Below are positions 2,965 to 14,351 of a DNA stretch of 64,000 nucleotides, in pieces. Positions within the stretch are counted from its first letter, which is position 1, and each line of letters begins with the position of its first letter. The notes under the pieces are model-generated. The model did no database searches and was not told the DNA's origin. It worked only from the letters and a program-made list of their open reading frames with translations. The position numbers and the translations under genes are program-made. Source of the stretch: an uncultured Lachnospiraceae bacterium (lineage in GTDB: Bacteria; Bacillota; Clostridia; Lachnospirales; Lachnospiraceae); the NCBI GenBank assembly GCA_947624815.1, contig CANQME010000002.1, positions 4,261-68,260 of the forward strand. Direction: 5' to 3'.

Positions 2965-5900
2965 TTACTGAACTCTTGCGCCGTCGCTGCCTACGTAATA
3001 GTCGCCAATAGTCTTATTGGTCGCCATGGCACCGCGGGTTCCGTCGGACTGTTCGTTAAAGTAGTACCAGCGGCCGTCGATCTGCTGCCATCCGGTCATC
3101 ATCCTGCCCATGAATCCATTCGATACCGGGTTCAGATAATACCTCTGGCCGCCGACGTCAACCCATCCGGTCGCCATAGCCTGACGGCTGTTGATATAAT
3201 ACCAGGCCGAAATGCCGTTATAGTCCAGATAATACCATCCACTGGGCGCCAGAGAACCTTCCACGCCTTCGGAAGCCTTCAGGAAATAGTACCACTCGCC
3301 GTTGATCTGCTTCCAGCCGACGGCCATTGCACCCGAAGTGCCTTCTCCCGGCTGATTCAGATAGTATGTCCGTCCGTCCGTATCAATAAACCAGCCGGTC
3401 ACCATATAACCGTCTGCGCCGAAACGGTACCATTCCGTCACGCCGTGATAGGTCAGCTTCTGCCAGGAGTTGGTCGCGAAGGAACCGTCCGGCAGCGGAT
3501 GACGCCAGCCGTTCGCATCCTGAGTCCAGCTGTCGTCCGGCGGAACCGTGGGCTGCTGGATCTGCTGCTCCTGTACGTTATCGTTCTTCTGGGTGTTCGT
3601 GCTTTCCGGCTTCTTATCGCTGTCGGTACTGCCGGTACTGCCTTCAGGCTGACTGCCCTTCATCCGGAAGTTCTGAGCCGTTCTCTTCAAGTCATTGACC
3701 CTGTCCGTACCGCTTCCCTGATTCTGGCTGCCATTACTGACGGACGTCTTGGTACGGAACTCGGCCGCGATCGTGTTGATCGTATCTGTCTTCGCACGCG
3801 TCCGGAAGGTCTGGCTCTTCACCGTGATTCTCGTGCTGCCGCTCTCCTTCGTATAATCTGTGCCGTCGATCAGCCGTTCACCGTTCAGCCAGACGTCTAC
3901 GAATTCCTCGATCACACCGGAGGATACGAAGGTCTGGTCGATGTAATCGGACAGAAGGAAATCATAATTGCCCAGATCGGTACCGATGTGCTCCTCCAGT
4001 ATATATCCTTCATCCGAAGATGTATATACGTTTGCATTGGTATTGCTCTTCACGGTCAGAACCAGATCCTTCCTCGCGGGAGCGAACTTCGCTACGCTGA
4101 ATCCGTCGCCGGCAGGATTCGTCCGTTCGAAGTTGGCCACGATCGTCACCGGGAACGTTCCCTCTTCTCTGGGAACTCCGTAAATCTCGCCGGAATTTTC
4201 ATACAACGTAACTCCCGCCGGAAGCCTGCCCTCCTCGAGCTCAAAGGTAACCTTATTCCAGTCGTACATATTATCGGTCGCGATAATATATGAATACGGA
4301 ACATATTTAACTGCGTCGACCAGCTGATCTGTCACGATAACCGGGTTACCCGCATATCCGGTCAGCTTGATCACCACCTCTTTGTTAGCGTTAGCACTAG
4401 ATATCGTCAGTGTACCTGAGATTTCTCCTCCCTTGCTGTTCGGGTCCGGAAGGAGACGGATCTTCGCCAGGTTAAAGTTGTCTCCTGTCGAATTCATATA
4501 ACTAGAAGCTCTCAACGTATTCGCCGTCTCGTTGATTGTCCAGTAATCATCTAGGACAACATTCTGAGCATCCTCACTCAGTTCAACCTTCAGGTCTGTA
4601 ATATCTTCATCACCAATATTGGCGATCAGGATGTCGTGACGATTTTCGAAGTATTCCGTAAGGAACAACTCCCTTACAGGCTCTTCGCCATTGTCAGGGT
4701 GCTGATCCGGATAATTAACGAACAGTTCCGGTCCATTTGTCGATTGTTCTTTTACTGTCACATAATAACTCTTCCTGTTACCATCATCAGGGAAAAACGC
4801 TGTTATCAGTACCGGGCCGTTTGAAAAATCCAGCTCGGTCTCTCTCGATATCAGTTCTTTATCGCCTATCTGTATCTTTACATTGTCGGCTTTGCCAAAT
4901 ATCAGCTTTACCTTTTTAAGATCAAACTCATCCTGACCATAGCTGGAACTGCTTTTCTGCACGATTACTGTCTGATAGCCGTAGCCGTACAACGTATCAA
5001 TGGTTTGATCCGGATCATTCTCCACATGATAAGATGAACGTCCTACCACTCCGTCGACATGAAACCATGGATCCTGTCGGTTCATAACCGGGTCACTGCT
5101 GTACGGCACATTCGATCCACTAGAACTGGTATCAGGATAAACATATAAATAATAATATTTTATGGACCCATCTTTATATACAACCGTGAATCGCTTACTT
5201 CTTTCATCACTTAAATCTATTTTATAACCATATGGAACCTTGCTTCTGTCAGAAGGCAACACAAGTGCAGTGATATCTGTCGCTTTTTCAACCTGTTCAA
5301 GAGTTCTAAAAGAGCCTTCCACGACTTTACTGATATTGGCCGCCTCAGATTCATCCATCACATAATAATATTCTGCACTCGAATAGCCGGATTTCAAGTA
5401 ATAATACGCATGAAATGGAACGGTAGAATCTCTATAATCAATCTCCATACCGTTCGGCTTCTTCGTAAGGTCAAGGCTACGCCCAGTATTACTATTTCCT
5501 CCGGACGCATCTGCTCTTCTCACAATATCTACCATGCTACCGTCTTCCAAATTATAAACAGACCCCTTCGGAAGACTCGTCTCCCCGGAAAGAACAGTAA
5601 ATATAATTCCTTCATATCCTATTACTGCATCAGAATTCATATCCCGGTAAACGATGCAGAAGAAGTTATTCGCCGCAAGCGCATCCTTCTCATCAACAGG
5701 CGCAAACTGATCAGTTAATCCTGCAGTACTACTACTGGAATAAGTACCGAGCATATCAATCTTTTTCGTAATGTCCAGTCCCTGCTGTGGATCATTCAGA
5801 TAATCCACAAAATCAGACATGTGATAAGCTTCCGCGATGATTCGATTACTGGTAGACATATAATGTCTGACATACAGCCTGTACTGCTTTTCCACACTGT

Positions 5901-6696
5901 AATCGTCGCTGGAAATATAATAACTTACCTCTGTCACCGGCACGTTTGCTCCCACAGTGACCGTTGACGCCTTCTCTGTCACGCTAGTATAATCAATGCT
6001 CCTCCCATTCTCACCATACAGGTGATAATCTAGCGCCGCATAGAAATCATTGCCTAAGTATACGTCCACTGTATAACGAACCGCTTCATAATCAAGCTGT
6101 TCACCGGTACCAATCAAGATTTCAAGCGTATAATACGAATCTCGGTATGCAACAGACAGATCGATCGTATCGTCCAGACCGTATTCCACATAATCATCAG
6201 ACAGATGATAATAGTAATCTCGATCTCCTTCCGGACTCGCGTTTGAATACATATTTATCAGGATCTTTTTTCCTGTCACATCAGGAGCCTCCATAGGCTT
6301 CCAGGTGGTATCATACAGATTCTCAAGAATCGTCCGTATCGGAACCTTCGTAAGCTCCTCATCCGTAAGATCCCTCAGCATCAAATACCCAGTGTAACTA
6401 TGCTTCGGAGGCAACAGTGACATCGGCATCGGCTCGTCTTCATCCGCATTGGCATCAGAAGCCACAGGCACCTCGGATTTCTCCGTCGTTGCCCCCCCGT
6501 CCGGCTCGTCTTCGTCCGTTTCGTCCGTTTCCGTCTCTGCCTTATCCGTCTGACTCTCCGTCGGCACTTCGAGAATCTTCTCGCCGGCTGTTTCGGATAC
6601 CTTCTCCGCTCTGGCCGTCATGCCCGGATTCATGCAGGAAACCAGCACCATCGCCATCACCAGCAGAAGTGACAGCCTTCTTCTTGCACTCCTCAT
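2965..6696 (-). CDS. Large secreted cell-wall-bound protein (signal peptide, acidic linker, beta-rich domains, putative Ig/He_PIG-like domain, C-terminal choline-binding-type wall repeats)
   Basis: N-terminus MRSARRRLSLLLVMAMVLVS...TARA; GRLPAGVTL..SGEIYGVP..EGTF Ig-like motif; repeated WYYF/YYLN..G.M.TGW units. Start at ATG 6696 after AAGGAGG. Confidence 0.85.
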   Translation of the reverse strand: MRSARRRLSLLLVMAMVLVSCMNPGMTARAEKVSETAGEKILEVPTESQTDKAETETDETDEDEPDGGATTEKSEVPVASDANADEDEPMPMSLLPPKHSYTGYLMLRDLTDEELTKVPIRTILENLYDTTWKPMEAPDVTGKKILINMYSNASPEGDRDYYYHLSDDYVEYGLDDTIDLSVAYRDSYYTLEILIGTGEQLDYEAVRYTVDVYLGNDFYAALDYHLYGENGRSIDYTSVTEKASTVTVGANVPVTEVSYYISSDDYSVEKQYRLYVRHYMSTSNRIIAEAYHMSDFVDYLNDPQQGLDITKKIDMLGTYSSSSTAGLTDQFAPVDEKDALAANNFFCIVYRDMNSDAVIGYEGIIFTVLSGETSLPKGSVYNLEDGSMVDIVRRADASGGNSNTGRSLDLTKKPNGMEIDYRDSTVPFHAYYYLKSGYSSAEYYYVMDESEAANISKVVEGSFRTLEQVEKATDITALVLPSDRSKVPYGYKIDLSDERSKRFTVVYKDGSIKYYYLYVYPDTSSSGSNVPYSSDPVMNRQDPWFHVDGVVGRSSYHVENDPDQTIDTLYGYGYQTVIVQKSSSSYGQDEFDLKKVKLIFGKADNVKIQIGDKELISRETELDFSNGPVLITAFFPDDGNRKSYYVTVKEQSTNGPELFVNYPDQHPDNGEEPVRELFLTEYFENRHDILIANIGDEDITDLKVELSEDAQNVVLDDYWTINETANTLRASSYMNSTGDNFNLAKIRLLPDPNSKGGEISGTLTISSANANKEVVIKLTGYAGNPVIVTDQLVDAVKYVPYSYIIATDNMYDWNKVTFELEEGRLPAGVTLYENSGEIYGVPREEGTFPVTIVANFERTNPAGDGFSVAKFAPARKDLVLTVKSNTNANVYTSSDEGYILEEHIGTDLGNYDFLLSDYIDQTFVSSGVIEEFVDVWLNGERLIDGTDYTKESGSTRITVKSQTFRTRAKTDTINTIAAEFRTKTSVSNGSQNQGSGTDRVNDLKRTAQNFRMKGSQPEGSTGSTDSDKKPESTNTQKNDNVQEQQIQQPTVPPDDSWTQDANGWRHPLPDGSFATNSWQKLTYHGVTEWYRFGADGYMVTGWFIDTDGRTYYLNQPGEGTSGAMAVGWKQINGEWYYFLKASEGVEGSLAPSGWYYLDYNGISAWYYINSRQAMATGWVDVGGQRYYLNPVSNGFMGRMMTGWQQIDGRWYYFNEQSDGTRGAMATNKTIGDYYVGSDGARVQ

Positions 6697-6774
6697 CGTA
6701 TTATCCTCCTTCATCGCTTAGGGCGATATCCCACCCGAACTTATTATATATCCAATCTTCCGATCAGGCAAGTA

Positions 6775-9700
6775 CTATTTGGCAAGAGATTCCAACTGCG
6801 CTTCCGGCTGAGAAAAATCCCCGGTCATCCGGATCAGCTCCTCAATTCCGTAAATCTGCGTTTTCCGGATATTCCCCGTCGGATAGTCAAAGTAAAGCTC
6901 GTCTCCCACGATGTCGCACAGATACGGCAGATCGGCCAGGACTTCGCACTGTCCGTTCAGCAGCTGTCCGAAATAATAGCTGTCCGCCGTCGTATACTGG
7001 GCGACGATGTAGTCTCCCACCTGCGTCACATAGGTCAGATAAGCGTCCTCCTCCAGATCCCGGATCTTCCTGCCCGTTTTCGCGTCATACGCGGCGGGTG
7101 TGCCGTGCAGCGGCGATTCGATCCTCAGAGAATCCGTATAGAATTCCTCGTGCATTTGCGGATCGGGCGCGTCGCCGGTCCGTTCCTCCATAAGGGAACC
7201 GTCTGCGGCGCTGTAGGTCCGGACCGTTCCGTCGTTATAGATGACCTCCAGATAGGAGGAGCCGTCCTCATCCCGCCGGTACTGCTGGTCGTACACCTGC
7301 TCCATATCGGGAATATCCGTCTGCGCGATCAGCTCTCCGTCCATCCCATACAGACGGAACTGATCGAACGCGAACAGCATGACCGTGCTGAGGTCGGCGC
7401 TGAACCTGGCCTCATCGTGCATATAGGAGGAATCGTACGCGAATACCTGGGCTTCCGGATAGTCAATGTATTTCATCAGCCGCACGACCGGCGAGTCCAT
7501 GCTTCCGACCATGGCCGTTCCTTCCGCGATCTGGACGAAGTCGCCGCCGTATTCCTTGTCATGGCTCGACATCAGGTTCGCGAAGCTGTCGTAGAACATG
7601 AACTTCTCCTCGGACGTGATCAGGGTATGCCCGCCGCTCCTGGCGAAGCGGAGGATATCTTCCGGCGTCGTTACAAGCGGCTCCTGCTCTCCGGTCACGG
7701 GATGGATCCGGACCAGGAGATTTTCCGTCTGGACGTAGATCCCGCTCTCATCCGTCTGAACACTGAACGGGTGGACCGAATCGAACCCGCCCGTCTGCTC
7801 CTTCCGGACCGTATCAATGACCGAGAAGACCGATTCGGAGGGATTGCTTGCCGAGAACGCCAGGTACTCCTGATAGAAGCCTCCCTCAAAATGGATGTAG
7901 CCGGAATCCTCCTCATACAGAATGATGTCCCCCTCCGGATCCTTCAGATCATAAATCTGCAGAGAACCGTCCGAGAAGCTGACGCACAGCATGGAGCCGT
8001 CGCCGTTCAGCGCGAACAGGTTGTCATTCGGATTGGCGAACACATCATTGACCGTCACCTTCTGATGCCTTCCGCCGAAGTCAACCGTATGAAGGACGCT
8101 TCCGGTCTCCACATCATAGACCACCGCGGATTCCTCGTCCCGGTAAACCGCCGCCGCGCTTTTTCCGTCCTCCGACAGAGCGATCGCCGTGGCGGGACGC
8201 CCCGTCCACAGGATCCTGCCGGCACGGATATCATAGGCCGTGATCCCTTCCGCTCCCGCGAGCAGGAACCGGTCGTTGTCTATGTACTCCGCCTCCGCAA
8301 GCGCGGACTCCACGACCGGCAGCGTATCCATGATCCGGCCGGTATCGGTATCCACGACCGCCGCCTCATATGCGTAAATACACACCGCCGTCTTCCCGTC
8401 CGGAGCGATCGACAGATACAGGGGCGCCGACGGCAGATTCACGACTCCGTTCGTCTTATAACCGTCATAAAGGTCGTACACGCCCAGCGCATCCGCCAGA
8501 GCGCTCTGCGCCTGCGCGGTATACGGCGGCTGCAGAATGCTTCCGGTCCGTTCCGGCAGCGCCTGCAGCGCGTAATCGACGGCTGCGTCGGAATCACCCG
8601 CGGCCAGAGCGTTGCGGGAATACTCCGCCAGCTTAAGCCAGCTCTCCTCCGTCTGCATCCTCTTAAGCCCCACGAACGCCGAAGCCGCGCCGGCCGCGAA
8701 CAGAACCGCAAATACCGATCCCGCGATCCGCTGGCCCAGCTTCATCCGCTTCACCCGCGGATCATTTTCCCTCAGATGGGTGAAATCAAACAGCATCTCC
8801 TCCGCCGTCTGATACCGCAGATCCGGGTTGGGATTCATGGCCTTCATAATGATCCCTACGACCTGCGGACTGAATTCCTTCGGCGAAAGCGGCACGACCT
8901 CCCGGGCGTCCCTGGCCGGACGGTGTCCGCTGAGAAGATGATAGAGCGTAGCGCCCAGACTGTAGATGTCCGACCTGACGTCCGGGACCACGATCCTCTT
9001 GCTGGGAACGGAAGAGGCGGTGCCAATCCCTGTAGGCCGGGTCCCCTGCGAATGGTACGCCTTCGCGGCCTCCGGTTCCAGGACGCGGGTCATCGTCTCC
9101 CCCCGCTCGTCCGCTTCCCGGTCCAGCGAAACCGTGACCGCGGTTCCGTCGTCAACCGGCAGAACCTCGGTTTTTCCGCCGTCCTCCGGCGCCGGTTCCG
9201 CCGGGGCCTTCCAGCCGGTCGTCACGGTCCGGTAGGTAAACGGCGTATCGATGTCCGTAGAGAAATCCAGACCATAATGCTCCGGCGACGCGTAGCCGGC
9301 GCTGCACCCGATGATATTCTCCTCCCCCAGCGCAAGCGCGATGTTAAAGTCGATCAGGCACACGCTGTTGTCCGGCTGCCGCATCATATTAGCCGGCTTG
9401 ATATCGCTGTGTACAAAGCCTCTCGGCGGATCGCCGTGATTCGGGGTATGCAGATAGCGCAGCGCGTCCAGAAGCTGGACCGCCCACTGGATGACCTGCG
9501 CCTGGGAGAATTTTTCTCCGCGCTTCAGCGGTTTGTCCAGGCTCTCCCCCTCCACATAATCCATAACCGTATAAACGGTATCATTTTCCACAAAGAAATC
9601 ATAGACCGCCGGTATATGCGGATGCTTCAGGTTCTTCAGAACGTCCACTTCCCGCCGAAGCAGCTCGATGCGGGTGGTGACCCTCCGTTTGTCCGCCTTC

Positions 9701-9810
9701 AGCACCACCTTCTTGTCCAGACGCATATGTCTGGCCAGATAGACGTTGCCGCCTCCGCCGGCGCCGATCTTCTCAATGATCTCATACGTTGACGCAATGA
9801 TCTGCGACAT
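6775..9810 (-). CDS. Hanks-type Ser/Thr protein kinase with one TM helix and a large extracellular beta-propeller-like region
   Basis: IGAGGGGNVY, VVLK, HSDIKPAN, LIDFN, GYASPE, SDIYSLGATLY; TM helix IAGSVFAVLFAAGAASAFVGL; WD40/PQQ-like repeats (SIAPDGK, LSEDGK, LNGDGS, YDVETG). Confidence 0.9.
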   Translation of the reverse strand: MSQIIASTYEIIEKIGAGGGGNVYLARHMRLDKKVVLKADKRRVTTRIELLRREVDVLKNLKHPHIPAVYDFFVENDTVYTVMDYVEGESLDKPLKRGEKFSQAQVIQWAVQLLDALRYLHTPNHGDPPRGFVHSDIKPANMMRQPDNSVCLIDFNIALALGEENIIGCSAGYASPEHYGLDFSTDIDTPFTYRTVTTGWKAPAEPAPEDGGKTEVLPVDDGTAVTVSLDREADERGETMTRVLEPEAAKAYHSQGTRPTGIGTASSVPSKRIVVPDVRSDIYSLGATLYHLLSGHRPARDAREVVPLSPKEFSPQVVGIIMKAMNPNPDLRYQTAEEMLFDFTHLRENDPRVKRMKLGQRIAGSVFAVLFAAGAASAFVGLKRMQTEESWLKLAEYSRNALAAGDSDAAVDYALQALPERTGSILQPPYTAQAQSALADALGVYDLYDGYKTNGVVNLPSAPLYLSIAPDGKTAVCIYAYEAAVVDTDTGRIMDTLPVVESALAEAEYIDNDRFLLAGAEGITAYDIRAGRILWTGRPATAIALSEDGKSAAAVYRDEESAVVYDVETGSVLHTVDFGGRHQKVTVNDVFANPNDNLFALNGDGSMLCVSFSDGSLQIYDLKDPEGDIILYEEDSGYIHFEGGFYQEYLAFSASNPSESVFSVIDTVRKEQTGGFDSVHPFSVQTDESGIYVQTENLLVRIHPVTGEQEPLVTTPEDILRFARSGGHTLITSEEKFMFYDSFANLMSSHDKEYGGDFVQIAEGTAMVGSMDSPVVRLMKYIDYPEAQVFAYDSSYMHDEARFSADLSTVMLFAFDQFRLYGMDGELIAQTDIPDMEQVYDQQYRRDEDGSSYLEVIYNDGTVRTYSAADGSLMEERTGDAPDPQMHEEFYTDSLRIESPLHGTPAAYDAKTGRKIRDLEEDAYLTYVTQVGDYIVAQYTTADSYYFGQLLNGQCEVLADLPYLCDIVGDELYFDYPTGNIRKTQIYGIEELIRMTGDFSQPEAQLESLAK

Positions 9811-9827
9811 GGTATTCCTCCCCCTGA

Positions 9828-10007
9828 CTAATGCTTTTTCTTCCTGTCTTTCCGCTTCTTTTTCACTTCCGGACCGTATTCGGCATCCAAAGCGGCGTTC
9901 AGACGGGCTTTGGCGATCTGAGTAATGCAGAAATACAGAAATGCCAGAAGGGCGGAAACTCCGGCGACGATCATGCCGCCGTAAAACAGTATTTCATTCG
10001 TTATCAT
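9828..10007 (-). CDS. Small single-pass membrane protein (59 aa, basic tail); first gene of the kinase operon
   Basis: TAAGGAGG RBS; hydrophobic segment ILFYGGMIVAGVSALLAFLYFCI; stop 17 bp before the kinase ATG. Confidence 0.75.
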   Translation of the reverse strand: MITNEILFYGGMIVAGVSALLAFLYFCITQIAKARLNAALDAEYGPEVKKKRKDRKKKH

Positions 10008-10103
10008 ACTCTGCTGCCTCCTTATCGCAGATCTCTGACCGGATCCCTCCTGCTGCCCTGCCGGCCGCATTCCGCCGGGAGATCTTCATTTCTAAACTGT
10101 TTC

Positions 10104-10132
10104 ATTATACACCCGGCTTTCATGTAAGACAA
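10104..10132 (-). promoter_or_regulatory. sigma-A promoter for the TM-kinase-surface protein operon
   Basis: TTGTCT-17 bp-TATAAT. Confidence 0.65.
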
Positions 10133-10139
10133 GAAACTC

Positions 10140-10168
10140 TTTACAAGTTCCCGTAAAAAAAGTATGAT
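10140..10168 (+). promoter_or_regulatory. sigma-A promoter for the RyR-DHH operon, back-to-back with the previous promoter
   Basis: TTTACA-17 bp-TATGAT. Confidence 0.6.
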
Positions 10169-10232
10169 GAAAAAAGCATAACCAATCCAAGGAATGTCTG
10201 GATGGAATGAAAAGAACAGGAGGCTTATCATA

Positions 10233-10544
10233 ATGAGCGAATATTATCCTGCCCCGATCGACACCAGCGGCGTAACCCTCTCGGAGGACCTTAAGGCCCT
10301 GACGGAACGGCTGGCGGAGAATGTCCACGAAAACTGGGCGCTGGGAAGATTAAACGACGGATGGACCTACGGAACGGTAAGAGACGACCTGCACAAGGAG
10401 ACGCCCTGCCTGGTTCCCTACGACCAGCTTCCGGAAAGCGAAAGGGACTATGACAGGAACACGGCCATGGAGACGCTTAAGGCCATCATCCGGCTGGGCT
10501 ACCGAATCGTACCGCAGAAGGAGGAATGCGCCGATGAAGCTTGA
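10233..10544 (+). CDS. Stand-alone RyR (ryanodine receptor repeat) domain protein
   Basis: Y.PAPIDTSGV.L...L.ERLAENVHENWA..R...GWTYG..RDD..K.TPCLVPYDQLPESERDYDR is the RyR repeat signature; AGGAGG RBS. Confidence 0.9.
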   Translation: MSEYYPAPIDTSGVTLSEDLKALTERLAENVHENWALGRLNDGWTYGTVRDDLHKETPCLVPYDQLPESERDYDRNTAMETLKAIIRLGYRIVPQKEECADEA

Positions 10545-12045
10545 AGATCTGCTCCGATTCCGTGAGATCGTGATCCAGTGCCACGACAATCCCGACGCGG
10601 ACGCCCTCGCCAGCGGCTACGGGCTCTTTACCTATTTCCGGCAGAACGGCAAGAACGTCCGGCTGGTCTACGGCGGCGCAAACGCCGTCAGCAAGCGTAA
10701 CCTGAAGCTGATGACCGACCTCTGCCGGATCCCGGCCAGGCATGTGCAAAGGCTGAAGGCGCCTGAGCTTCTTCTGTATGTAGACTGCCAGCCCGGCGAA
10801 AGCAATGTGCAGGACTTTCCGGCCCGGACCACCGCGGTCATCGACCACCACCGGGTCGCTCCCAACAAGAAGCTGCCCGAGCTTCAGCGGATCCACAGCA
10901 ATTACGGCTCCTGCTCCACCATCGTGTGGCAGATGCTGGAGGAAGCCGGATACCAGGTCAACGACAATCCGGACCTGGCCGCCGCCCTGTATTACGGCCT
11001 GTATACGGACACCGGACGGCTGCAGGAGATCTCCCACCCCATGGATAAGGATATGCGGGACTATCTGAACGTCTCGCCCAGCGTGATCACGCTGTTCCAG
11101 AATTCCAACCTGTCCCTCAGAGAGCTGGAGATCGCCAGTCAGGCGCTGGCCGGTTATCATTTCGATTCGAGATATCATTTTGCTCTGATCGACGCCGAAG
11201 CCTGCGATCCCAATATTCTGGGCGTGATCAGCGACATGATGCTGGAGGTGGACGTGGTCCGTACCTGCGTGGCGTACTGCATCCTGAACGGCGGCGTCAA
11301 GTTCTCCGTCCGCAGCTGCGTGAAAGAGACGCGCGCCAACGAGCTGGCCGAATTTCTGGCCGACGGCATCGGCAACGGAGGCGGCCACGCCAGAAAGGCC
11401 GGCGGCTTCCTAAACGGCGCATCTCTCTTCCCGAAGCGCGGCAACGCAGACCGGATCCACTCGGACGTGTTCCATCTCTTAAACCGGAAGATGAAAGAAT
11501 ATTTCCGCGCGGAGAAAGTGGTCCATGCAGGAGCCGGCCATTACGACTGGACGCAGGCCCCCATCTACCGCAAGAAGAGAGTTTCCGTCGGGTATGTGCC
11601 TTCGGCAGAGATGTTCCCGCCTGAAACCCCGGTCATGGTCCGTATGCTGGAGGGAGATTTCGAATTTAACAGAAAAGAAGACTATTTCCTGATGATCGGC
11701 ACGAGCCACGAGGTCTACACCTGCTCGAAGGAAGTCTTCGCCAAGAACTACGAGGCGACGCAGGAGCCCTACGTCATGGAACAGAACTACCGTTCCTTCG
11801 TGAAGAATCTGCAGACCGGCGAGAAGATCGATCTGGCTTCCCACGCAAAGGCGTGTATCCCGAAGGAAACCTCTCTCGTATACGCCTCCAGGCTGGAGGA
11901 AACGATCAAGCTCTTCCCGCTCTGGGATCAGGAAAACTACATGCTGGGACGCCCCGGCGACTGGATCGTGGCGCAGAAGGAGAACCCAAAGGATATCTAT
12001 ATCGTGAAAGAAGATATCTTCGACCGGCTTTACGAGGCCGTCTGA
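10534..12045 (+). CDS. DHH/DHHA1 phosphoesterase with two C-terminal PGDYG-like domains
   Basis: HDNPDADALAS, VDC, IDHH, GLYTDTG, GGGHARKAGG. C-terminal YRKKRVSV...MLEGD...EVYTCSKEVFAKNYE and GRPGDWIV...IYIVKEDIFDRLYE. Start overlaps the RyR gene end. Confidence 0.85.
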   Translation: MKLEDLLRFREIVIQCHDNPDADALASGYGLFTYFRQNGKNVRLVYGGANAVSKRNLKLMTDLCRIPARHVQRLKAPELLLYVDCQPGESNVQDFPARTTAVIDHHRVAPNKKLPELQRIHSNYGSCSTIVWQMLEEAGYQVNDNPDLAAALYYGLYTDTGRLQEISHPMDKDMRDYLNVSPSVITLFQNSNLSLRELEIASQALAGYHFDSRYHFALIDAEACDPNILGVISDMMLEVDVVRTCVAYCILNGGVKFSVRSCVKETRANELAEFLADGIGNGGGHARKAGGFLNGASLFPKRGNADRIHSDVFHLLNRKMKEYFRAEKVVHAGAGHYDWTQAPIYRKKRVSVGYVPSAEMFPPETPVMVRMLEGDFEFNRKEDYFLMIGTSHEVYTCSKEVFAKNYEATQEPYVMEQNYRSFVKNLQTGEKIDLASHAKACIPKETSLVYASRLEETIKLFPLWDQENYMLGRPGDWIVAQKENPKDIYIVKEDIFDRLYEAV

Positions 12046-12050
12046 CCAGG

Positions 12051-12102
12051 AAGGCCGCCGGAGCAGGTGAACCCTGAACGACTCACCTGGCCCGACGGCC
12101 TT
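12051..12102. terminator. Hairpin between the convergent DHH and TIR-FHA genes
   Basis: aaggccgccgg-agcaggtga ... tcacctgg-cccgacggcctt inverted repeat. Confidence 0.5.
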
Positions 12103-12117
12103 ATCTTTCACTTTATC

Positions 12118-13059
12118 TCATTCCTGACTGAAGTTCACGTTAAGGCTCAGATTACCGAGCTTCAGAAGACCTCCGTTTGTGAGGGGGACGGCTTCCGTCA
12201 CAGGCTTCCCGTCCAGATACGTTCCGTTGGTAGAATTTAAGTCCCGGATCATGACCTGATCGTCCTCCACATAGATCATGCAGTGCTTCCGCGATACGGA
12301 ATTCTCCCCGGTCAGTACGATCTGGCATCCGTCCTTCTGGCTTCTTCCGATCTGGACGCTCTCCAGCTCCGTAAGCTCGGCCTCGAAGCAGAGGTCCTGA
12401 CGGGTCGGACTGGTCAGTGTCAGAAGGTACCGGATCCCGGGATAACCGACAGCCAGCTCCGTCTCCCCTTCGTCGTCGCATTCCGCCAGTACGGTGGCGG
12501 ACAGATCCTCGTCGAACTCCTCTTCCGGTATCTCCTCCGATTCCGGCTGCGTCTTCCGGAATCCTCCGAAGATCCCCAGCTTCTCCCGGACCCCTCCGCC
12601 GCCAAACGGGAAGAGCCGGTTCTGTCCGCGGCATTTCTCAAGGTTGACCGTCGTATAAAGCTTGGCGAAGCTCTGCTCCTGGGAACCGTACTGGTTCCAG
12701 AAGATTGCCTGCATACGGCTGTTGCGCAGGGCCAGACCGCCCTCCAGATTCACGTCCTCCAGATAGATCAGAAGCCGGTTCCGGATACCCGCGTCCCTGG
12801 AACGGTTCAGCTCATCCTTGCAGTTCTCCGAATTCAGGTAGTTCCTGGTCAGAAACACAAAGAAGTAATAGCAGCCGCACAGACGCTGATCGATATAATC
12901 CGCCCACTCCGAGCCCGGCGCGATCCCCTCGTCATACCATACATAATACCCGTCCTCCTGCATGCGGGAGATGATCGGCCATACCGTCCTGCTGTCCATA
13001 TGGGAATAGCTGACGAAGATATATGGTTTGTTTCCTTTATACGATACCGGCTTCTGCAT
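12118..13059 (-). CDS. TIR domain - acidic linker - FHA domain protein
   Basis: YIFVSYSHMD, VWYDEGIAPGSEW, YLNSENCKDEL (catalytic Glu position retained); FHA motifs IGRS, SVSRKHC, DLNSTNGTYLDG. Confidence 0.9.
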   Translation of the reverse strand: MQKPVSYKGNKPYIFVSYSHMDSRTVWPIISRMQEDGYYVWYDEGIAPGSEWADYIDQRLCGCYYFFVFLTRNYLNSENCKDELNRSRDAGIRNRLLIYLEDVNLEGGLALRNSRMQAIFWNQYGSQEQSFAKLYTTVNLEKCRGQNRLFPFGGGGVREKLGIFGGFRKTQPESEEIPEEEFDEDLSATVLAECDDEGETELAVGYPGIRYLLTLTSPTRQDLCFEAELTELESVQIGRSQKDGCQIVLTGENSVSRKHCMIYVEDDQVMIRDLNSTNGTYLDGKPVTEAVPLTNGGLLKLGNLSLNVNFSQE

Positions 13060-13097: not shown

Positions 13098-13126
13098 ATT
13101 ATACTTGAAATGGCTCCTCCGGTCAA
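13098..13126 (-). promoter_or_regulatory. Near-consensus sigma-A promoter of the TIR-FHA gene
   Basis: TTGACC-17 bp-TATAAT. Confidence 0.7.
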
Positions 13127-13172: not shown

Positions 13173-14351
13173 TCAGTGATGGAACAGGCGGATCCCCGTA
13201 AATACCATGGCCATCCCGTATTTATCACAGGTAGCAATCACCTGGTCGTCCCTCACGGAACCGCCCGGCTCGGCTATATAGCGGACGCCGCTCTTCTTCG
13301 CGCGCTCAATGTTGTCGCCGAACGGGAAGAACGCGTCGCTTCCCAGCGCCACATCCGTCATCCGGTCGAGCCACGCCCGCTTCTCCTCGCGGGTAAATAC
13401 CGGCGGCTTCACCTTAAAGGTCTTCTCCCACACGCCGTCCGCCAGAACATCCATATATTCCTCTCCGATGTAAACGTCGATGGCGTTGTCACGGTCCGCC
13501 CGCTTGATGCCGTCCACGAACTGCAGCGACAGCACCTGCGGCGCCTGACGCAGAAACCAGTTGTCCGCCTTCTGTCCCGCCAGTCTCGTGCAGTGAACGC
13601 GGGACTGCTGTCCGGCGCCGATGCCGATGGCCTGTCCGTCCTTCACGTAGCAGACCGAATTGGACTGGGTATACTTCAGCGTGATCAGCGAGATCGCCAG
13701 ATCTCTCTTCGCCGCCTCCGGGATCTCCTTATTGGCCGTCACCACGTTGGACATCAGCTCGTCGTCGATCTTTAATTCATTGCGCCCCTGCTCGAAGGTA
13801 ATGCCGAACACCTGCTTTTTCTCGGTCGGATCCGGCTCATAGCTCTCGTCGATCCGGATCACGCAGTAATTGCCGTTCTTCTTGCTCTTCAGGATCTCCA
13901 GCGCCTCCGGCTCGTACCCCGGAGCGATCACGCCGTCGGACACCTCCCGCTTGATGATCCTGGCCGTATCCGCGTCGCACACGTCCGACAGGGAAATGAA
14001 ATCTCCAAAGGAAGACATCCGGTCCGCCCCACGCGCTCTTGCGTAGGCGCAGGCAAGAGGCGACAGATCGCCCATATCGTCTACCCAGTAGATCTTCTTA
14101 AGCGTCTCGTCAAGCGGCAGTCCCACCGCCGCTCCCGCCGGCGACACATGCTTAAAGGACGTGGCCGCAGGCAGTCCCGTCGCCTTCTTAAGCTCCCTCA
14201 CCAGCTGCCAGCCGTTGAATGCGTCCAGGAAATTAATGTAGCCCGGCCGTCCCGACAGCACCGTGATCGGCAGCTCCTTTCCGTTCTCCATAAAGATCCG
14301 CGACGGCTTCTGGTTCGGATTGCATCCATACTTTAACTCAAGTTCTTTCAT
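13173..14351 (-). CDS. purH: AICAR formyltransferase (PurH transformylase domain only)
   Basis: LKYGCNPNQ, SFKHVSPAG, QSNSV, GAGQQSR, SDAFFPF, PGGSVRD, RLFHH. No N-terminal cyclohydrolase domain. Confidence 0.9.
   Translation of the reverse strand: MKELELKYGCNPNQKPSRIFMENGKELPITVLSGRPGYINFLDAFNGWQLVRELKKATGLPAATSFKHVSPAGAAVGLPLDETLKKIYWVDDMGDLSPLACAYARARGADRMSSFGDFISLSDVCDADTARIIKREVSDGVIAPGYEPEALEILKSKKNGNYCVIRIDESYEPDPTEKKQVFGITFEQGRNELKIDDELMSNVVTANKEIPEAAKRDLAISLITLKYTQSNSVCYVKDGQAIGIGAGQQSRVHCTRLAGQKADNWFLRQAPQVLSLQFVDGIKRADRDNAIDVYIGEEYMDVLADGVWEKTFKVKPPVFTREEKRAWLDRMTDVALGSDAFFPFGDNIERAKKSGVRYIAEPGGSVRDDQVIATCDKYGMAMVFTGIRLFHH

Follow-up and report, generated by a model that had tools for sequence, protein, structure and literature searches.

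A widespread TIR-DHH gene pair and its apparent TIR-FHA/receptor kinase variant in an uncultured Lachnospiraceae bacterium

Our analysis was made on a 64,000-nucleotide stretch of DNA from an uncultured Lachnospiraceae bacterium (GCA_947624815.1, contig CANQME010000002.1, positions 4,261 to 68,260; hereafter the window) and concerns a block of six genes lying between a DegV gene (1888-2754) and the AICARFT/IMP cyclohydrolase gene (13173-14351). These genes encode a wall-anchored surface protein, a receptor Ser/Thr kinase of the Hanks type, a small transmembrane peptide, a RyR repeat, a DHH-DHHA1 phosphoesterase with a PGDYG-like tail, and a soluble TIR-FHA protein. The six genes with their domains, which the original prediction had placed between degV and purH, were all borne out, as were the flanks, by the list of open reading frames (ORFs) and by Pfam. 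We found that DHH and TIR genes form a conserved core, and that this pair mostly occurs without the kinase. The pairing is widespread and apparently undescribed. The linkage is strong and wide, and the TIR-FHA/kinase form of the window appears to be a variant of it.

A word-index search with the DHH family, whose members have about 500 residues, gave more than 3400 matches, and the family is present in at least 581 species genomes of the GTDB set. All seven neighbourhoods annotated with Pfam have a TIR_2 gene at most one gene away from DHH, and in six the two are directly adjacent. The linkage was then counted in the best 80 of the at least 581 species-level DHH loci, annotated with a hidden Markov model (HMM) built from the TIRs of the annotated neighbourhoods. 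A TIR was found within three genes of DHH in 48 of the 75 loci annotated by HMM, and 45 of these 48 were directly adjacent. Five more loci, all of high GC content, whose DHH frame had been missed by ORF picking, were checked by hand and all had a TIR. The total therefore came to 53 of 80, and with this count the neighbourhood analysis of RyR-DHH homologues proposed beforehand as a check was carried out. None of the 501 ORFs lying further from DHH in those loci was a TIR. A RyR gene joins the DHH-TIR pair in about ten loci, either in the short form seen in the window or in a form of about 455 residues, and the DHH-RyR operon of locus L014 also contains a NUDIX gene.

Most of the TIR proteins in these loci have the shape of receptors. 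A transmembrane helix follows the TIR domain in 45 of the 53 DHH-linked TIR ORFs, with at least 300 residues beyond the helix in 42 of the 53. Since there is no N-terminal signal sequence, the TIR must lie in the cytoplasm and the large domain outside. The outer parts are propellers, NPCBM or TPR domains, or are of no recognised type. In the window, the TIR protein (12118-13059, minus strand, 313 residues; TIR_2 E 4e-17 and FHA E 3e-18, Pfam) has no transmembrane helix according to transmembrane prediction. It is soluble and carries an FHA domain instead. Its gene stands convergent at the end of the block, as had been predicted. Glu83 of this protein (P0002) aligns with a Glu in 62 of 64 DHH-linked TIRs, the other two being offset by one column. 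The FHA motifs GR...SRKH...NGT are present, with the Arg, Ser, His and Asn of phosphothreonine binding. A scan of its own genome found this to be the only TIR_2 gene in the assembly. We suggest that the window holds a split version of the TIR receptor, in which an FHA domain would have taken the place of the TIR's own receptor part.

The kinase (6775-9810, minus strand, 1011 residues; Pkinase E 1e-34, PQQ_2; Pfam) has a single transmembrane helix at residues 362-380 and an outer domain of about 630 residues forming a PQQ/WD40-like beta-propeller, which stands in the place of PASTA repeats. Its transmembrane and outer parts are 33% identical over 540 residues to the TIR receptor of L019 (E 7e-76), and seven more TIR receptors match the same parts in phmmer (E 2.5e-15 to 1e-4). 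The TIR receptors of L027-L029 match the kinase from the transmembrane helix onward. An outer domain fused in one case to a kinase and in the other to a TIR is support of the Rosetta-stone type, and suggests a functional link between the kinase and TIR-FHA. The catalytic residues K38, D136, N141 and D154 are kept in three orthologues, with HSD and DFN variants of the motifs, and a T-E-[LV]-[LV] sequence in an insert between subdomains VIII and IX is conserved in the same number.

Two genomes outside the genus, at loci L035 and L095 (AICARFT 72% and 69% identical, respectively), also carry the full set of transmembrane peptide, kinase, wall protein, RyR, DHH and TIR-FHA. There the RyR-DHH-TIR-FHA cassette is located downstream of the wall gene and not upstream of the transmembrane peptide, and the TIR-FHA shares just 27% (TIR) and 37% (FHA) identity with that of the window. 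Co-occurrence of the three transcription units elsewhere had been set beforehand as a test of the original prediction, and these two genomes passed it. Among the 80 DHH loci, besides the window, a soluble TIR-FHA was found only in L035 and L095, which are exactly the loci with this type of kinase. The predicted relay from kinase through FHA to TIR gained support from the domain swap and from this recurrence. The block is not one indivisible system, as the modules mostly occur apart.

Other TIR-FHA proteins and relatives of the window's TIR were met outside the DHH loci. The nearest TIR-FHA homologue (53%; L111:2277-4367) lies tail-to-tail with a RES-domain gene and near NPCBM and zinc-ribbon membrane proteins. 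Another (L112:671-9756) is clustered with a leucine-rich repeat (LRR) protein, two multi-TIR proteins, a PP2C and a 1468-residue protein combining kinase, Card1 and nuclease parts. In gut metagenomes the TIR subfamily of the window is fused to Pkinase directly, FtsZ/tubulin, guanylate kinase, Sel1, LRR_5, MORN or DUF1292 (examples: proteins P0184, P0208, P0210, P0212, P0173 and P0189). The direct TIR-Pkinase fusions, the L112 cluster and the loci with FHA and PP2C next to this kinase operon add to the case for a pairing of kinase and FHA. In one subgroup of DHH loci (L034, L041, L075 and L026), DHH is followed by a TIR receptor of 1120-1170 residues and then by a giant surface protein of 1441 to more than 6000 residues with Big_2, DUF285 and LRR_5 domains. 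These giant proteins are homologous to one another and not to the wall protein of the window.

The DHH gene (10534-12045, plus strand, 503 residues, from the likely start within an ORF of 10450-12045; Pfam) encodes an enzyme whose motifs H18, D22, D24, D85, D105-H106-H107, D160 and GGG(H) show little or no variation among 87 sequences. Its AlphaFold2 model (pLDDT 94) has TmPDE, GdpP, Rv2837c, NrnA and DhhP as nearest structures, with a Foldseek E of 1e-19 to both TmPDE and GdpP. It shares with NrnA, the GdpP catalytic domain, Rv2837c/CnpB, TmPDE and DhhP the same two-domain fold, the DHH motifs I-IV and GGGH. It differs from these stand-alone enzymes in its low identity to them (17-20%), its extra barrel tail of 180 residues, an Arg-rich DHHA1 motif reduced to K..S.R, and its linkage to TIR. 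A role as housekeeping nanoRNase, which the original prediction had named as an outcome that would refute it, was rejected: the NrnA equivalog score is 27.3 bits against a cut-off of 350, the distribution is patchy, and other DHH genes, of housekeeping type, are present in the assembly on contigs C11 and C142.

The C-terminal tail is modelled as tandem small barrels (pLDDT 91). Look-alikes of it are fused to HAD or DHHA1 hydrolases, and also stand alone in phages, where some are annotated as PGDYG; the resemblance to the phage proteins is partial (55 residues, 34-36% identity). A module common to different phosphohydrolases, with copies in phages, fits a nucleotide-binding role, which the tail may have. 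Two roles of the enzyme can be considered. The existence of two-gene TIR-DHH loci with no other candidate effector favours DHH as the signal-controlled output, like ThsA in Thoeris, and we put a signal-switched effector at slightly under an even chance. The nearest relatives being turnover enzymes, together with the NUDIX gene in the L014 operon, favours an eraser of the nucleotide or of its product. We give this second role nearly the same chance, and it is no better supported than the first.

The RyR protein is a stand-alone single repeat of 103 residues (10233-10544, plus strand; ORF 10194-10544, likely start 10233). It matches Pfam RyR (PF02026) with E 4e-35 and 120 bits against a cut-off of 27.4, the RyR-like protein 3NRT of B. 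thetaiotaomicron with E 7e-36, and 6UHI with E 1e-35 per repeat. The DHH gene starts 11 nucleotides before the end of the RyR gene. A 2026 preprint reports binding or cleavage of 2'cADPR and 3'cADPR, isomers of cyclic ADP-ribose (cADPR), by RyR domains of phages, and cleavage of the ribose-ribose bond by RyDEP, with H75, W78, H100 and D117 as ligand or catalytic residues (PMC13232231). This gives an experimental precedent to the predicted role of RyR as reader of the TIR product, and that part of the prediction may be kept as a possible role. Like RyDEP and the phage anti-Thoeris RyR domains, the window RyR is a PF02026 repeat of about 100 residues which is expected to dimerise, and the H-x-x-W and a downstream Asp are kept; residues were compared by motif only. 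Unlike them, it is encoded by the host, translationally coupled to a DHH enzyme, and has a TIR nearby. Its HENW and the Asp of EReYDR are conserved in L035 and L095.

RyR was found in 228 phage records, and DyoEdafos, sought for the RyDEP sequence, was not among the 40 of these listed. A close match in an unverified 'Bacteriophage sp.' contig has no DHH beside it and was set aside. The assembly of the window itself has, on contig C10 (L148:8302-9672), a second, long RyR protein of 456 residues, adjoining a Tn916-type integrase and of the type found in the DHH operons of other genomes. At L021, RyR and DHH share an operon with a 992-residue protein (L021:2075-5053, minus strand). Its N-terminus is Rossmann-like, a RyR-like stretch ('EHRRW...GW') lies inside it and a Card1-like nuclease domain is found at its C-terminus, so that it might act as a nuclease effector gated by RyR. 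As evidence on TIR linkage L021 was dropped, because its contig ends 195 bp past the DHH gene.

The same enzymes might be arranged differently, with the TIR as an NAD+-depleting effector causing growth arrest, as in CBASS, Pycsar and SPARTA, and with RyR and DHH only recycling or detoxifying products of the ADP-ribose (ADPR) type. The catalytic Glu of the TIR is intact, phage RyR yields linear ADPR feeding NAD+ resynthesis (PMC13232231), and DHH has a weak NCBIfam match to family II pyrophosphatase (E 3e-9). Tight TIR-DHH pairing and a conserved ligand-type DHH tail fit a signal-partner relation better. Family II pyrophosphatases are themselves DHH enzymes, but the fold of the window's DHH is nearer to NrnA and GdpP (TM-score by target 0.62-0.71, against about 0.5 and a root mean square deviation of 12-13 Å for pyrophosphatases). 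We find NAD+ depletion quite improbable as an explanation.

Our preferred reading distinguishes two modules. Module A, the core, would pair a TIR enzyme with its own dedicated DHH-DHHA1, which bears the tandem PGDYG-like tail, and a RyR protein often joins the two. Module B would consist of the small transmembrane peptide, the receptor Hanks kinase and the wall-anchored protein, elsewhere accompanied by other FHA proteins and PP2C. We lean slightly towards the view that in the window the kinase module and the TIR-DHH core together make up a single signalling pathway that runs from the outside inward. What we observed directly are the domains, the conserved catalytic residues, the linkage of the genes, the domain swap and the recurrence, and from them we infer every biochemical step as well as the output. 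The kinase would be activated by a cue from the wall or the outer face, perhaps read jointly with the wall protein, and would autophosphorylate on Thr, with T-E-[LV]-[LV] in the insert as a candidate site. Docking of the FHA domain would then gather TIR-FHA at the membrane, and the clustered TIR would convert NAD+ to a nucleotide derived from ADP-ribose, a cyclic ADPR isomer being the most likely product. A RyR dimer would bind or open this nucleotide, and DHH would either be switched on by it through the tail or cleave it. For the family as a whole we propose, tentatively, that TIR proteins of Toll-like-receptor shape in gut Clostridia turn an outer cue into an NAD-derived nucleotide, which DHH would read through a new kind of ligand-binding module, the tandem PGDYG-like barrel, that phages may have copied as a sponge. 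The kinase recruiting TIR by phosphothreonine and FHA would be the derived form.

The transmembrane peptide of module B (9828-10007, minus strand, in an ORF open to 10070) has 59 residues from a likely start at 10007, which sits behind GGAGG. Homologous peptides with the pattern LFY..G...AEYG.K(K/R) are found upstream of the kinase in L035, L095 and 10 of 11 kinase-wall loci. The wall protein (2965-6714, minus strand, 1249 residues) has a signal peptide, a He_PIG Ig domain and choline-binding repeats (Pfam/NCBIfam), while those of L035 and L095 are anchored by SLH domains. Its residues 573-1018 are 33-34% identical to the L035 and L095 wall proteins. The N-terminal half has no homology to them and is low in GC (42-46% at 4000-6500, 0.42 at 4500-6000, against about 56% around), as might be expected of an outer module that has been exchanged or evolves fast.

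When the conserved part of the wall protein was searched against 400 genomes of the order, 15 loci were taken. The kinase adjoins the wall gene in 11 of the 15, the transmembrane peptide being detected in 10 of the 11, and an FHA protein with PP2C lies just upstream in three of the 11. The idea that the kinase-wall operon always comes with TIR and DHH was rejected, as TIR, DHH and RyR are missing from 11 of the 15 loci. A congener, G009, has flanking genes 90-96% identical to those of the window and shares syntenic orthologues of the transmembrane peptide, kinase (73%), wall protein (46%), DegV and GalK. The slot of TIR-FHA, DHH and RyR is taken there by a Tad pilus cluster together with DUF6382-FHA and PP2C, directly upstream of the orthologous operon of transmembrane peptide, kinase and wall protein. 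This G009 set (L180:711-10715 and L185:318-3401) comprises TadZ, TadA, TadB/C, an A24 peptidase, a WG-repeat protein and DUF5702, followed by DUF6382-FHA and PP2C. No DUF6382-FHA was found in the window's own assembly (G000), whose PP2C genes are located elsewhere. In the loci examined, the FHA slot of the kinase operon holds either DUF6382-FHA/TM-FHA or TIR-FHA, never both. The slot swap in G009 and the kinase-wall loci with other FHA proteins indicate that one FHA-bearing output of the kinase can be exchanged for another, a TIR with DHH and RyR being the output in three lineages.

The block is accessory. In a congener whose AICARFT is 97% identical to that of the window (L151), DegV follows AICARFT directly, so the site is empty. 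None of 29 congeners has a TIR-FHA at the AICARFT-DegV site, and the DHH family is patchy within the genus, with about 9 of 36 congeners having it. AICARFT identity within the genus is 87-97%.

Several observations weigh against a joint pathway or against parts of it. No DHH, RyR or TIR-FHA was found in the 11 kinase-wall loci, and the kinase-wall operon at the AICARFT-DegV site looks ancestral, so that it could have come to adjoin the cassette merely through the replacement of cargo at a variable spot. The block contains no PP2C and no lethal effector domain of known type. Neither DHH nor a kinase lies in the 13 kb examined around the TIR-FHA of L111. About a third of the best 80 DHH loci have no nearby TIR, and there are syntenic loci which keep DHH while the TIR receptor gene, between DHH and a conserved gene of about 570 residues, is present or absent (L078, L083, L093, L102 and L109 compared with L077, L082, L099, L104 and L108). 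By their gene annotation, the DHH neighbourhoods appear to be mostly housekeeping or regulatory and not defence islands. A His beside a conserved Pro in the animal and B. thetaiotaomicron RyR repeats is Thr in the window. As for the DHH-PGDYG label of the prediction, DHH and DHHA1 stand, but PGDYG (PF14083) reaches only 15.1 bits against a threshold of 27 (E 0.03). For the fold of the tail, Foldseek gave nothing against the PDB at E<=0.001, and VIA-align gave Z<=4.6, to SH3/Tudor-like barrels; the tail matches no fold with an assigned function.

These points raise the alternative of two unrelated modules side by side. The kinase-wall operon would be a remnant of a Tad- or T7SSe-like envelope system, and an independent, Thoeris-like RyR-DHH-TIR-FHA cassette would have replaced the pilus genes. 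The FHA of the TIR would then read some other phosphoprotein, for instance a substrate of the housekeeping PrkC-type kinase on contig C109. The Tad genes, DUF6382-FHA and PP2C beside the same kinase operon in G009 fit this alternative, as do the 11 of 15 kinase-wall loci free of TIR, DHH and RyR, the variability of the site among congeners, and the other Hanks kinases and PP2C elsewhere in the assembly. Parts of the kinase module also appear on the T7SSe component list, which includes DUF6382-FHA, a PPM phosphatase, a membrane kinase, a small transmembrane protein and a large Ig-rich envelope protein (PMC11217815). However, two genomes outside the genus have the combination again, differently ordered and with a distant TIR-FHA, TIR-FHA and this kinase are strictly co-present among the 80 DHH loci, the outer domain of the kinase is of the type fused to TIRs, and the FHA slot is never doubly occupied. 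On balance we regard two unrelated modules as unlikely.

For the output of the joint pathway, patchy distribution, insertion at a variable site, hyperdiverse sensors, a low-GC and fast-evolving wall gene, and phage copies of both binding modules point toward defence. Housekeeping neighbourhoods, the extracellular sensor and the want of a lethal domain point away from it. We give defence against phages or competitors an even chance, and envelope physiology is possible at a lower likelihood. The latter could take the form of a second-messenger circuit with TIR as writer, DHH (and RyR) as eraser and readers elsewhere, such as the long RyR protein of C10, in the manner of diguanylate cyclase/phosphodiesterase pairs. 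Such a circuit would suit the extracellular sensors with their wall-anchored partner, the housekeeping neighbourhoods without lethal effector, the c-di-AMP, pApA and nanoRNA phosphodiesterases as nearest DHH structures, the second RyR protein in the assembly and the NUDIX gene of L014. It is less easily reconciled with the patchiness even within the genus (about 9 of 36), an insert at a site which is empty in a congener, the extreme diversity of the sensor domains, and the phage copies of both putative ligand-binding modules, which suggest a conflict role (PMC13232231). We hold it plausible though not favoured.

The promoter-like sites of the block were called from consensus matches only. Between the transmembrane peptide and RyR genes (10104-10168, both strands) are back-to-back sigma-70-like promoter sites, each with 10 of 12 matches: the minus strand has TTGTCT-17-TATAAT (10132-10104), the plus strand TTTACA-17-TATGAT (10140-10168). 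As predicted, the -35 boxes of this divergent pair are 7 bp apart. The TIR-FHA gene has a promoter-like site TTGACC-17-TATAAT (13098-13126, minus strand; 11 of 12 matches). A GC-rich hairpin with a U-rich tail (12047-12101; -33.1 kcal/mol, z -2.97) lies between the convergent DHH and TIR-FHA genes and is a candidate bidirectional terminator.

Comparison with known systems showed the nearest likeness to Thoeris. The TIR with catalytic Glu is tightly linked to a gene combining a putative ligand-binding module with an enzymatic domain, and RyR domains of phage proteins recognise Thoeris signals (PMC13232231). The differences are that the TIR forms the head of a membrane receptor here, or would be recruited by FHA to a receptor kinase, that the partner is a DHH-DHHA1 with PGDYG-like tail, and that the loci do not appear to lie in defence islands. 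PADLOC on the six proteins gave generic kinase matches (PD-T4-6, MAD6) and weak ThsB-like matches (E 1.7e-3), with no ThsA and no system. In the parts available of the text and four supplements of Yirmiya et al. 2025 (10.64898/2025.12.03.692087), which treat Thoeris types I-XI and predicted types, DHH, RyR, FHA and kinase are not named. The earlier statement that the gene set matches none of Thoeris, CBASS and Pycsar agrees with both results, as far as those parts of the source go. The TIR has the Glu expected of Thoeris; a described effector or a known signal-binding domain (SLOG, Macro, etc.) was not found. The block may work in a Thoeris-like way, with a TIR and a linked partner, and it does not fit any described type.

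The nearest description of the kinase module is that of the T7SSe proteins TseD, TseF, TseJ (DUF6382-FHA), TseK and TseI, with a kinase having an outer domain, a small transmembrane protein, an envelope protein and an FHA reader (PMC11217815). Actinobacterial PknB-PstP-FhaA/B similarly has a membrane kinase and an FHA reader. In contrast to both, the FHA reader of the window carries a TIR, there is no PP2C, and the neighbours in the congener are Tad pilus genes. Of T7SSe only regulatory-type parts were seen (in G009), and no EssC-type ATPase was met, none having been searched for. Toll-like receptors and IRAK are comparable in having an outer sensor, one helix and a cytoplasmic TIR, and in the variant kinase and TIR would be joined at the membrane. 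This is an analogy of architecture only, since bacterial TIRs of this type are expected to be NAD+-consuming enzymes and not scaffolds, and there is no sign of common descent of whole receptors. The literature searched held nothing on PGDYG, nothing joining a RyR domain with DHH, and nothing relevant on Thoeris or TIR with DHH. On FHA with TIR and kinase it held only general surveys of the Aravind group, which name neither DHH nor RyR.

Known bacterial TIR signalling, as in Thoeris, senses intracellular events. Here, hundreds of species appear to link an outward-facing receptor TIR to an enzyme class and a ligand-type module which are undescribed as TIR partners in the literature searched. One type of outer domain seems to drive either a fused TIR or a kinase with TIR-FHA, a natural experiment that makes the activation of TIR by induced proximity directly testable. 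In these loci the relation of cADPR to RyR domains also becomes accessible in a simple bacterial setting, and orphan phage proteins of the PGDYG type gain a candidate function. If the proposed pathway is true, the variant in the window would show, for the first time in bacteria, TIR signalling that is gated by phosphorylation.

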